A DNA stretch of 43,266 bases from assembly GCA_030636745.1 (NCBI GenBank), contig DAOVWH010000001.1:1-43266 (forward strand), in the 5' to 3' direction. Numbering within the stretch: the first letter of the stretch is position 1; each line of letters opens with the position of its first letter. Shown here in pieces: positions 40,818-42,643 of the stretch. The notes beneath the pieces are model-generated. The model ran no database searches. It saw only the letters and a list, made by a program, of their open reading frames with translations, and had not been told where the DNA came from. Source of the stretch: Alphaproteobacteria bacterium (GTDB lineage: Bacteria; Pseudomonadota; Alphaproteobacteria; Micavibrionales; Micavibrionaceae). Made by a program: the position numbers and the translations under genes.

Positions 40818-41708
40818 ATGCAGATTATCTCACAAAGCAGCGAAAACCACTTGTTACAAGATTTAAGATCCCTTTGGCAAAACAACACACAATACAGGTG
40901 CTTGCAATTTAAATTTTCCCAAACTGAAAAATATAACGATGAATGGCCTGATTTAATATCAGCAGAATTAACATTGTTTTTCGAAGACGTGTTTTTGGAT
41001 GTATATGTCTGTAAAGATCACGATATTTTTATTATCAACCGGACGATGACACATAAACGTGTCGCACAATTTCTAACCCACCTAGGACCAAAACTTGGGC
41101 CAGCCCGTGACGAAATATCCGGGCTAGCCTCTCTTTATGAAATTGGTATAGATTGGGCAATACTGCGATCTATTTGCGAGAAAAAAATTGATACTATCAG
41201 ATTAGAAAGATACATAGCCAAACAAGGAAAAGAGAGTAAACACCACAAAGACGATATAAACACAGAAGAAAAATCACAAACAATTAAAGAAGCCAACGAA
41301 GAAATGGTTCTCTCCCTCCCTCGCCGACGCAAAAATCGTAAAGTAACAGAGATTTTAGTCGTCGAAGACGATCCACTATCTCAACGTCTTATAGGTAACG
41401 CTTTAAAAGATACACATAGCTACACAATTATAGGCGAAGGAAAAAAAGCATGTATGACATATCTTATAAAAGCACCAGATATATTGTTCCTTGATATTGG
41501 ATTACCCGACATCAGCGGCCATGAGGTTTTAAAGAGTATTTTTGAAATAGATCCAGAAGCCTATGTTGTAATGTTCAGCGGCAATGGAGATAAAGAAAAC
41601 GTTCTTAAAGCTATCGATGTCGGGGCAAAAGGTTTTTTAGGAAAGCCATTTACACTCGACAAACTAATGCAATACATTGAAAAATCACCACACATAAAAG
41701 GAAAATAG
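40818..41708 (+). CDS. Response-regulator-like protein: unrecognised N-terminal domain (about 165 aa) plus C-terminal receiver
   Basis: The REC domain shows EILVVEDDPLSQRL…ILFLDIGLPDISG…VVMFSG…GKPF, with the acidic pocket, phospho-acceptor Asp, Ser and Lys all present. The N-terminal domain has no motif I recognise. GGAAGGA lies upstream of the ATG. Confidence 0.85.
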   Translation: MQIISQSSENHLLQDLRSLWQNNTQYRCLQFKFSQTEKYNDEWPDLISAELTLFFEDVFLDVYVCKDHDIFIINRTMTHKRVAQFLTHLGPKLGPARDEISGLASLYEIGIDWAILRSICEKKIDTIRLERYIAKQGKESKHHKDDINTEEKSQTIKEANEEMVLSLPRRRKNRKVTEILVVEDDPLSQRLIGNALKDTHSYTIIGEGKKACMTYLIKAPDILFLDIGLPDISGHEVLKSIFEIDPEAYVVMFSGNGDKENVLKAIDVGAKGFLGKPFTLDKLMQYIEKSPHIKGK

Positions 41709-41797
41709 CATTAATGTATTCTACTTTTAATTCGGCCATTTACCGTATTAACTTAATAAACACAATAAAGTACTTACAAAACGTGTAGGAGTAAAAA

Positions 41798-42643
41798 ATG
41801 GACATTGTTACAACTGATGCAAACAGAGAATTGTTTGATTTAACATCATCCATCGCGCAAAATTCTCAAACCTGGCAAGGATGGTTTTGCCTCAAAATAG
41901 ACCTAACAACACGTAATGGCACATCATATGAGGAAGGTCTAAACTGGGTACGTTCCATCATAAAAACACACTTAAAAGACATACAAGGACATGCTTATTT
42001 TTGTGAAAACAATTCTGTTCATATCCTCTGCAAACCTCCTTCAGAAAAAATCCTAGAACAAACAGGTGAACAAATATGCGATATAATTGAATCTGAAACC
42101 AAAGAAAAATCCCTGTATACCCTTTATGATTTGTGTTCGCACGGTTTAGACTATGTGCAAGATATAATGGGAGCTACCGGAAATATTTTTTCTCTTCCCT
42201 CATCAACAACATCTCAAGAAACAGAAGAGCCCTCTTCACCACAACACCCCAAAACGCCTTGGGGGAAAACTTTATCATCATTACAAAATGCCCCTAAAGT
42301 CCTTCTTGTCGAAGACGATCCCATCACCCGCTGGATGGTACGTAATTCACTTAAAGATATATGTGACTTTGCCACAGCATCCACAGCCAGAAAAGCCTAT
42401 GCTATGTATACATCTTACCAACCAGATGTCGTTTTTCTAGATATCAACCTTCCTGATAAAGACGGTAGAATAGTGCTCAAATGGGTTATCGAACACGATC
42501 CCGGAGCTTGTGTTGTCATGTTTTCCAGCGAAGACTCACTAGAAAATATTACTGAATGCCTAAATAACGGAGCAAGCGGTTTCGTTACCAAACCTTTTTT
42601 AAGAGAGGATCTCATTCATTATGTCCGACCTCATACTGAGTAA
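41798..42643 (+). CDS. Paralogous response-regulator-like protein: unrecognised N-terminal domain plus C-terminal receiver
   Basis: The REC domain shows [14 protein letters not shown]…[13 protein letters not shown]…VVMFSS…TKPF. The N-terminal part shares landmarks with the upstream gene (W…CL-hydrophobic strand, …Y-x-C-x-polar4-hydrophobic4). Confidence 0.85.

Follow-up and report, generated by a model that had tools for sequence, protein, structure and literature searches.

What does a response regulator act upon when its receiver comes last and the half that precedes it matches no described family? This question is raised by two tandem genes, p1 and p2, in a 43,266-nucleotide stretch of DNA (the window) from an uncultured, Micavibrio-like alphaproteobacterium of the family Micavibrionaceae (contig DAOVWH010000001.1 of assembly GCA_030636745.1). 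Each gene encodes an N-terminal domain (the N-domain) joined by a disordered linker to a C-terminal receiver (REC), and an earlier note on this DNA, made by reading the sequence, had suggested that the two N-domains are paralogous and reminiscent of the GGDEF domains of nucleotidyl cyclases. By comparing related loci, aligning the N-domains by themselves, modelling their fold and following the domain into other proteins, we find that the domain is real and conserved, that it lacks annotation, and that the response-regulator architecture in which it sits is unusual. On balance, and with moderate confidence, we favour a reading in which p1 and p2 are phosphorelay response regulators that carry a catalytically dead, GGDEF-like adaptor as their output domain.

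Two regulators with intact receivers and a shared N-domain

The receiver is the sole Pfam domain in p1 and in p2 (coordinates and scores in Table 1); both copies exceed the curated PF00072 cut-off of 30.2 bits, and the NCBIfam matches of the two proteins are likewise to REC only. The catalytic set is complete in each receiver, namely D184/D185, D226, S254, F273 and K276 in p1 and D173/D174, D215, S243, F262 and K265 in p2, and D185, D226, S254, F273 and K276 (p1 numbering) are invariant across 21 homologs. Both genes are preceded by Shine-Dalgarno-like sequences (GGAAGGA before position 40818, AGGAG before 41798). The earlier description of canonical C-terminal receivers without a known output domain, in proteins built of two domains with low-complexity linkers, is borne out by these results; the 130-165 residues that it had assigned to the N-terminal domain are to be divided between a folded part, of about 139 residues in p1 and about 125 in p2, and a remainder that is low-complexity linker.

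The N-terminal halves are of a different kind. Neither matches any Pfam family at E <= 1 or any NCBIfam model; single-sequence searches of the PDB sequence library return nothing for either, a search of the same library with a profile of 92 N-domains returns nothing significant, and in full-text literature searches no description of the domain, or of the gene cassette in which it lies, was found. Compared at full length by BLASTP, p1 and p2 are 25% identical (E 2e-29), and because that score is driven by the receiver the N-domains were also aligned on their own: 56 N-domains of first genes against 36 of second genes gave an hhalign probability of 97.2% and an E-value of 3.3e-11 over 119 columns. 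This result shows that the p1 and p2 N-domains are true paralogs and that their similarity does not derive from REC. The motifs that had been picked out by eye share alignment columns, RCLQFKF with FCLKIDL and VYVCKDHDIFII with a 13-letter segment of p2. What had been proposed before, a domain common to both proteins, unrecognised and marked by a shared pattern, is therefore sustained, and the paralogy stands when orthologs are included in the alignment.

Conserved positions of the N-domain comprise E9, L12, a G-W pair before strand 1, D67, Y107-[D/E]-L and K/R123. Its hairpin reads CKDHD in p1 (C65-K-D67-H-D69) and CENNS in p2, where both aspartates are lost, in agreement with the earlier remark that the GGDEF signature is replaced (by KDHD and ENNS); D67 and D69 are conserved in proteins of the first-gene type (A-type, see below). 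Two cysteines of p1, C28 (window positions 40899-40901) and C65 (41010-41012), are conserved only in receiver-fused N-domains, both being present in 175 of 241 of these and occurring together in none of 142 N-domains fused to EAL. At 50% identity the receiver-fused family comprises 666 representative clusters, and almost all of them share one architecture.

A predicted fold that resembles GGDEF

Residues 1-140 of p1 were modelled with AlphaFold2 from a 92-sequence alignment, giving a mean predicted local distance difference test score (pLDDT) of 94.5 and a predicted template modelling score of 0.88. The model is a mixed alpha/beta sandwich, with five helices counted, and its elements follow the order b-a-b-a-b-b-a-b-a (strand 2-4, helix 8-22, strand 27-31, helix 43-54, strand 61-64, strand 70-74, helix 79-103, strand 104-108, helix 113-139). 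Up to helix 4 this order agrees with beta-alpha-alpha-beta-beta-alpha-beta-alpha, the order of the PleD GGDEF core, and the p1 hairpin C65-K-D-H-D69 presumably occupies the position of the GG(D/E)EF motif in the PleD structure. When the isolated p1 N-domain was searched against the PDB with Foldseek, GGDEF domains made up 38 of the 50 best matches (LapD, DosP, DosC, PleD, WspR, DgcZ, FimX and others), and several of the top matches were the degenerate GGDEF domains of LapD and DosP. In the family alignments no catalytic, I-site or nucleotide-binding residue or motif is conserved, and the N-domains have no conserved acidic residue at the end of strand 1.

The same N-domain in front of EAL, and alone

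Of 151 genomes of the window's order, 51 proved to contain the domain in six-frame searches with an N-domain profile, as did 66 of 401 genomes sampled from the class Alphaproteobacteria; when 401 genomes were sampled at the level of the phylum, all those with a match belonged to that class. Outside the order most matches fall in open reading frames (ORFs) of 400-490 residues, and the two of these that were examined have as their C-terminal half an EAL domain (PF00563, one of the two scores lying below the cut-off; Table 1) whose signature motifs, read by eye, are degenerate. The N-domains of 22 EAL-fused proteins match the p1/p2 N-domain profile with an hhalign probability of 99.4% and an E-value of 1.3e-21. 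The EAL-fused family numbers at least 1,003 clusters at 90% identity from many Alphaproteobacteria (among them proteins P0170-P0289), is labelled in its sources only as 'EAL domain-containing protein' or 'hypothetical', and may represent a receptor of cyclic di-GMP (c-di-GMP) of the LapD/FimX kind.

In these homologs the N-domain lies directly N-terminal to EAL, and it therefore occupies the place that GGDEF holds in GGDEF-EAL proteins. One EAL-fused member was modelled with AlphaFold2 (pLDDT 85.7): its N-domain has the same topology, and a disordered linker formed by residues 141-167 leads to an EAL barrel. Searched with Foldseek, this model found GGDEF-EAL tandems as all of its 16 best matches (PA0861, LapD, MorA, DosP, PA0575), with alignments of 430-476 columns and E-values from 3e-13 to 3.5e-9, against 7e-9 for the best EAL-only structure, 4e-9 for the cNMP-EAL protein Bd1971 and 2.9e-8 for the BLUF-EAL protein BlrP1. 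BLUF is itself a ferredoxin-like domain; since its combination with EAL brings no gain, the improvement is specific to GGDEF and is not shared by any small alpha/beta domain that precedes EAL.

A third form consists of the N-domain alone, in proteins of about 157 residues that keep both cysteines and a hairpin of the form C-x-D-G-D. The neighbourhoods of the two stand-alone genes listed in Table 1 show no consistent theme; one of them, at locus L144, lies tail to tail with a gene for a 352-residue EAL protein that is intact in appearance. The N-domain family thus has three architectures: receiver-fused, EAL-fused and alone.

A putative sigma54-associated phosphorelay cassette

The genes around p1 and p2 form a cassette of three receivers around one hybrid kinase bearing an Hpt domain, behind a sigma54 promoter motif. 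On the upstream side, and divergent from p1, lies a sigma54-dependent response regulator, a generic member of the NtrC family that reaches no NCBIfam equivalog cut-off. An inverted repeat (AATCAATT-N8-AATTGATT) between the two genes ends 17 nucleotides upstream of the -24 element of the promoter, and may be a binding site for the activator or for integration host factor (IHF). In 19 related loci the p1 ortholog is preceded by the same promoter motif, at a distance of up to about 110 nucleotides in 17 of them and of about 320-400 nucleotides in two (L031 and L034); the motif was also found in L078, a locus matched solely through the receiver. With a -24/-12 motif, an adjoining enhancer-binding protein and an rpoN gene in the genome (222 bits), the operon is predicted to be sigma54-dependent. 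A 981-residue ORF is situated two genes upstream of the cassette, at window positions 35167-38112.

Downstream, the ORF of the hybrid kinase starts within p2, overlapping its stop by 23 nucleotides, and is cut by the end of the contig. Its 5' part encodes HisKA, a PAS-like region and, at the N-terminus, a hydrophobic segment that we read as a membrane anchor; this part shares 52% identity with residues 1-211 of the kinase of locus L001, the closest relative. That kinase has 698 residues and carries HisKA, HATPase, REC and Hpt. The missing REC-Hpt tail opens another contig of the same assembly (C15; L086 3-785) and matches residues 443-696 of the L001 kinase with 61% identity. The assembly has split the kinase gene, and the contigs that hold its two parts probably adjoin each other.

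This arrangement was followed through 76 related loci, fewer of which were testable for some features. The tandem pair of regulators is present in 47 of the 76, the hybrid kinase lies downstream in 60 of 66 testable loci, and 45 of 63 have a homolog of the sigma54 activator upstream in divergent orientation. Sixteen related loci have, in addition, an H-NOX gene that separates the regulators from the kinase; neither this window nor this genome (81% complete) was found to contain one. When 124 proteins were placed in a tree, the first-position (A-type) and second-position (B-type) genes fall into clean clades, and genes present as a single copy are mostly A-type (26 of 30); taken together, these relations among the sequences indicate one ancient duplication, with the gene order fixed since. 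A few loci have as their second gene a bare B-type receiver of 140-190 residues (Table 1).

Table 1. Positions of the features discussed. Entries without a locus handle refer to the window; handles beginning with L denote other loci.
Feature	Position	Strand	Evidence or remark
p1, A-type N-REC response regulator	40818..41708	+	ORF, 296 aa; orthologs 60-85% identical; A clade of tree
p1 N-domain, aa 1-139, GGDEF-like alpha/beta (predicted)	40818..41234	+	AlphaFold2 model, Foldseek
p1 receiver, aa 179-287, phospho-acceptor D226	41352..41678	+	PF00072, 77 bits
p2, B-type N-REC response regulator	41798..42643	+	ORF, 281 aa; orthologs 52-61% identical; B clade support 0.97
p2 N-domain, aa 1 to about 125, paralog of the p1 N-domain (from alignment)	41798..42172	+	hhalign, conservation table
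p2 receiver, aa 168-276, phospho-acceptor D215	42299..42625	+	PF00072, 76.7 bits
Divergent sigma54-dependent response regulator (REC, AAA+ sigma54-interaction, Fis-type helix-turn-helix)	39054..40466	-	Sigma54_activat 228.7 bits, Response_reg 91 bits, HTH_8
Inverted repeat, perfect, 8-nt arms; candidate binding site	40660..40683		repeat search, 100% complementary
Sigma54 promoter motif TGGCAC-N5-TTGC	40700..40714	+	sole perfect match in window; ends 104 nt upstream of p1 ATG
Hybrid histidine kinase, 5' part	42621..43265	+	HisKA 51 bits; cut by contig end
Bare B-type receiver	L017 8890-9312		
Bare B-type receiver	L048 8785-9357		
Bare B-type receiver	L050 1803-2276		
Bare B-type receiver	L056 8882-9340		
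Bare B-type receiver	L057 5876-6322		
EAL-fused N-domain ORF	L120 655-1902	-	PF00563 44.5 bits
EAL-fused N-domain ORF	L122 1456-2688	+	PF00563 22.7 bits, below cut-off
Stand-alone N-domain protein	L119 1414-1884	-	about 157 aa
Stand-alone N-domain protein	L144 1501-1974	+	about 157 aa

Proposed mechanism and alternative readings

We propose that p1 and p2 are anciently duplicated regulators in a branched His-Asp-His-Asp phosphorelay that would regulate itself via sigma54. The downstream hybrid kinase (HisKA, HATPase, REC and Hpt) would pass phosphate, in the direction that we infer, through its Hpt domain to three receivers, that of the sigma54 activator and the C-terminal ones of p1 and p2; the activator would drive the p1-p2-kinase operon from the TGGCAC-N5-TTGC promoter, so that a feedback loop results. 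The output of p1 and p2 would be a shortened domain of the GGDEF-type (palm) fold, or one derived from GGDEF, and because the residues for cyclase catalysis and nucleotide binding are absent it would act as a protein-protein adaptor or a regulatory module, not as an enzyme. Phosphorylation of REC may then alter what the N-domain binds, either by releasing it from the receiver in the manner of PhyR or by dimerisation.

Several results weigh against this reading, most of them against the tie between the N-domain and GGDEF. The Foldseek scores of the isolated domain are weak (best E 0.013, none <= 0.001; query-normalised TM scores 0.30-0.48; probability up to 0.94). Compared with the published PleD structure, the N-domain lacks the final GGDEF strand(s), the GG(D/E)EF motif, the metal-binding aspartate of strand 1 and the RxxD I-site. 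A six-frame search of the genome with the PF00990 hidden Markov model finds six GGDEF domains, p1 and p2 not being among them; and hhalign comparisons of five N-domain alignments (the A group, the B group, both, a 380-sequence superfamily and the N-domains fused to EAL) with two targets, canonical GGDEF and a degenerate, truncated GGDEF family of this genus, gave E-values of 0.037-0.6, no better than negative controls made with receiver and EAL alignments (0.019-0.47). That the method works follows from a positive control, in which a degenerate REC-GGDEF family of the same genus matched canonical GGDEF with an E-value of 8.5e-10. Under relaxed settings two alignments (pooled N-REC and EAL-fused) take the register expected from topology, the hairpin falling on GGEEF and strand 1 on the DxD strand, an agreement that is statistically weightless. 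Finally, the B copy of some relatives is a bare receiver, so that in that lineage the N-domain is dispensable. As membership of PF00990 fails both on the sequence profile and on the motifs, we call the domain GGDEF-like and not a member of the GGDEF family.

The main structural rival is accordingly a non-GGDEF origin of the fold: the N-domain would be an independent ferredoxin-like alpha/beta domain without common descent with GGDEF, a new signalling domain whose resemblance to GGDEF and whose place before EAL are convergent or coincidental. The GGDEF profile tests, all at noise beside a positive control that works, speak for it, as do Foldseek E-values no lower than 0.013, TM scores no higher than 0.48 and the presence among the best 50 matches of further ferredoxin-like folds (glutamyl-tRNA reductase complex, HPPK, SPOR), those of the 50 that are not GGDEF being ferredoxin-like or palm folds. 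We nevertheless regard it as unlikely, if by no means negligible, given that GGDEF domains dominate those same 50 matches, that matches of the EAL-fused model to GGDEF-EAL score better than those to EAL alone by about four orders of magnitude, with no such gain for BLUF-EAL, and that the order of elements up to helix 4 equals that of the PleD core. Descent of the N-domain from GGDEF seems to us somewhat likelier than an even chance, and a GGDEF-like fold somewhat likelier again. The earlier GGDEF-like reading is in this way supported in part, by fold and by architecture only (the position before EAL and the full-length EAL-fused model), and left without help from the sequence profiles, while the structure search that it had suggested, run on the p1 model, did return mostly GGDEF matches, if at poor scores. 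Its description of degenerate cyclase-like sensor or adaptor domains under phosphorylation control agrees with the missing catalytic residues; the role as sensor or adaptor is one that we, too, infer. An active but very divergent enzyme of the nucleotide cyclase or polymerase type, controlled by the receiver, might be read from the palm-like fold and from the hairpin acids D67 and D69 conserved in A-type proteins, and is very improbable when p2 lacks both aspartates, no conserved acid ends strand 1, the domain stops short of the C-terminal part of a cyclase and no nucleotide-binding motif runs through the family; an active cyclase was rejected on the absence of catalytic residues. Least probable of all, to the point of being hardly credible, is that p1 and p2 are CheV-like (CheW-REC), PatA-type (PATAN-REC) or PhyR-type (sigma-like-REC) regulators, with which they have in common only the order of a non-receiver domain followed by a C-terminal receiver. 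No CheW (PF01584), PATAN (DUF4388) or sigma-70 region is matched in Pfam at E <= 1, and no PhyR or CheV model is among the best 25 of 91-95 NCBIfam matches; the model is alpha/beta, neither all-beta as in CheW with its two beta-barrels nor all-helical as in sigma-like domains; none of these folds, nor CheA-P5, occurs among the best 50 Foldseek matches; and the adjoining genes encode a sigma54 activator and a hybrid kinase, no chemotaxis or NepR/EcfG genes lying nearby. CheW/CheV (the alternative named in the earlier note), PATAN/PatA and PhyR were each ruled out on these grounds.

With respect to function, the main rival holds that p1 and p2 are mainly phosphate sinks, which the activator would induce and which would drain phosphate from Hpt as negative feedback, the N-domain serving for dimerisation, stability or localisation. 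The predicted sigma54-driven operon that the two genes share with the kinase, their intact receivers and the bare B-type receivers, which show that a receiver alone is useful in some relatives, would all suit a sink. The maintenance of the N-domain in 666 clusters, and its recurrence fused to EAL or alone, point to a function of its own, and we think a role as sink distinctly unlikely. A further, more speculative reading, to which we assign a slimmer chance still, treats the N-domain as an undescribed signalling domain, confined to Alphaproteobacteria among the genomes searched, whose copies form pairs: p1 and p2, once phosphorylated, would dock on proteins that carry the N-domain or GGDEF, coupling the sigma54 phosphorelay to c-di-GMP effectors, and the C28/C65 pair might add a switch sensitive to redox state or nitric oxide (NO) to the receiver-fused form.

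Relation to known systems

The favoured reading, a dead GGDEF-like adaptor under receiver control, has its closest structural parallel in the degenerate GGDEF domains of GGDEF-EAL proteins (LapD of P. fluorescens and V. cholerae, FimX, DosP, CsrD). These are nearest to the N-domain in predicted fold; homologs of the N-domain precede a degenerate EAL and align over their full length with LapD, MorA, DosP and PA0861; and the N-domain, likewise without catalytic residues, is presumably regulatory. It differs from them in showing no detectable sequence similarity, in being shorter, with the last strand(s) missing, and, in p1 and p2, in its fusion to a C-terminal receiver instead of EAL. REC-GGDEF regulators such as PleD, WspR, DgcR and PopA also combine a receiver with a GGDEF-type domain, and in PopA a dead GGDEF domain can serve as the output of a response regulator; in p1 and p2, however, the order is reversed, the N-domain coming first, and neither an RxxD I-site nor a GGDEF motif nor a match to PF00990 is found.

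As a circuit, the cassette resembles the H-NOX/HqsK-LuxU-LuxO system of Vibrio and the HnoK-HnoB/C/D network of Shewanella and V. cholerae, in which a kinase-Hpt relay leads to a sigma54 activator of the NtrC/LuxO type, and the H-NOX gene of the 16 related loci adds to the likeness. In the Hno network HnoD, a response regulator with a dead c-di-GMP-type domain, acts as a modulator. Here, by contrast, no H-NOX was found in the window or in the incomplete genome, Hpt is part of the kinase, and the additional regulators carry the N-domain and neither EAL nor HD-GYP. PhyR, an alphaproteobacterial anti-anti-sigma factor, has an output domain followed by a C-terminal REC, as p1 and p2 do, and sets a precedent in that phosphorylation frees its output domain from the receiver; the N-domain of p1 and p2 differs in being alpha/beta and not sigma-like, with no sigma-region match in Pfam and no NepR/EcfG nearby.

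Other degenerate GGDEF proteins of this genome

Directly after the kinase tail on contig C15, on the opposite strand (L086 816-1739, -), is a gene for a 307-residue protein with a degenerate GGDEF domain (PF00990, 45.7 bits) that has YMGDGVF in place of GGDEF; its N-terminal half has no assignment, and similar ORFs of 305-330 residues occur in relatives. On contig C30 (L087 1402-2229, -) a 275-residue protein has a receiver that scores weakly (30.3 bits) and a degenerate GGDEF domain, truncated (HMM positions 8-112, 27.6 bits), in which TENHEYA replaces GGDEF. ORFs resembling the latter, of 270-318 residues and 35-73% identical, were found in 18 relatives from several families of the order.

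Significance

Receivers and GGDEF-type domains are among the commonest parts of bacterial signalling, yet the N-domain is invisible to Pfam, NCBIfam and PDB sequence searches. The order of its receiver-fused form, output first and receiver last, is rare among response regulators, and through it p1 and p2 can serve to test how a receiver governs a domain placed before it. Recognition of the N-domain would correct the counts of c-di-GMP-related proteins in Alphaproteobacteria, and would give a name to the N-terminal half of many proteins now called 'EAL domain-containing' or 'hypothetical'. For Micavibrio-like bacteria, it would make known the output of a conserved sigma54 phosphorelay that regulates itself and that in relatives takes input from other sensors, such as H-NOX.

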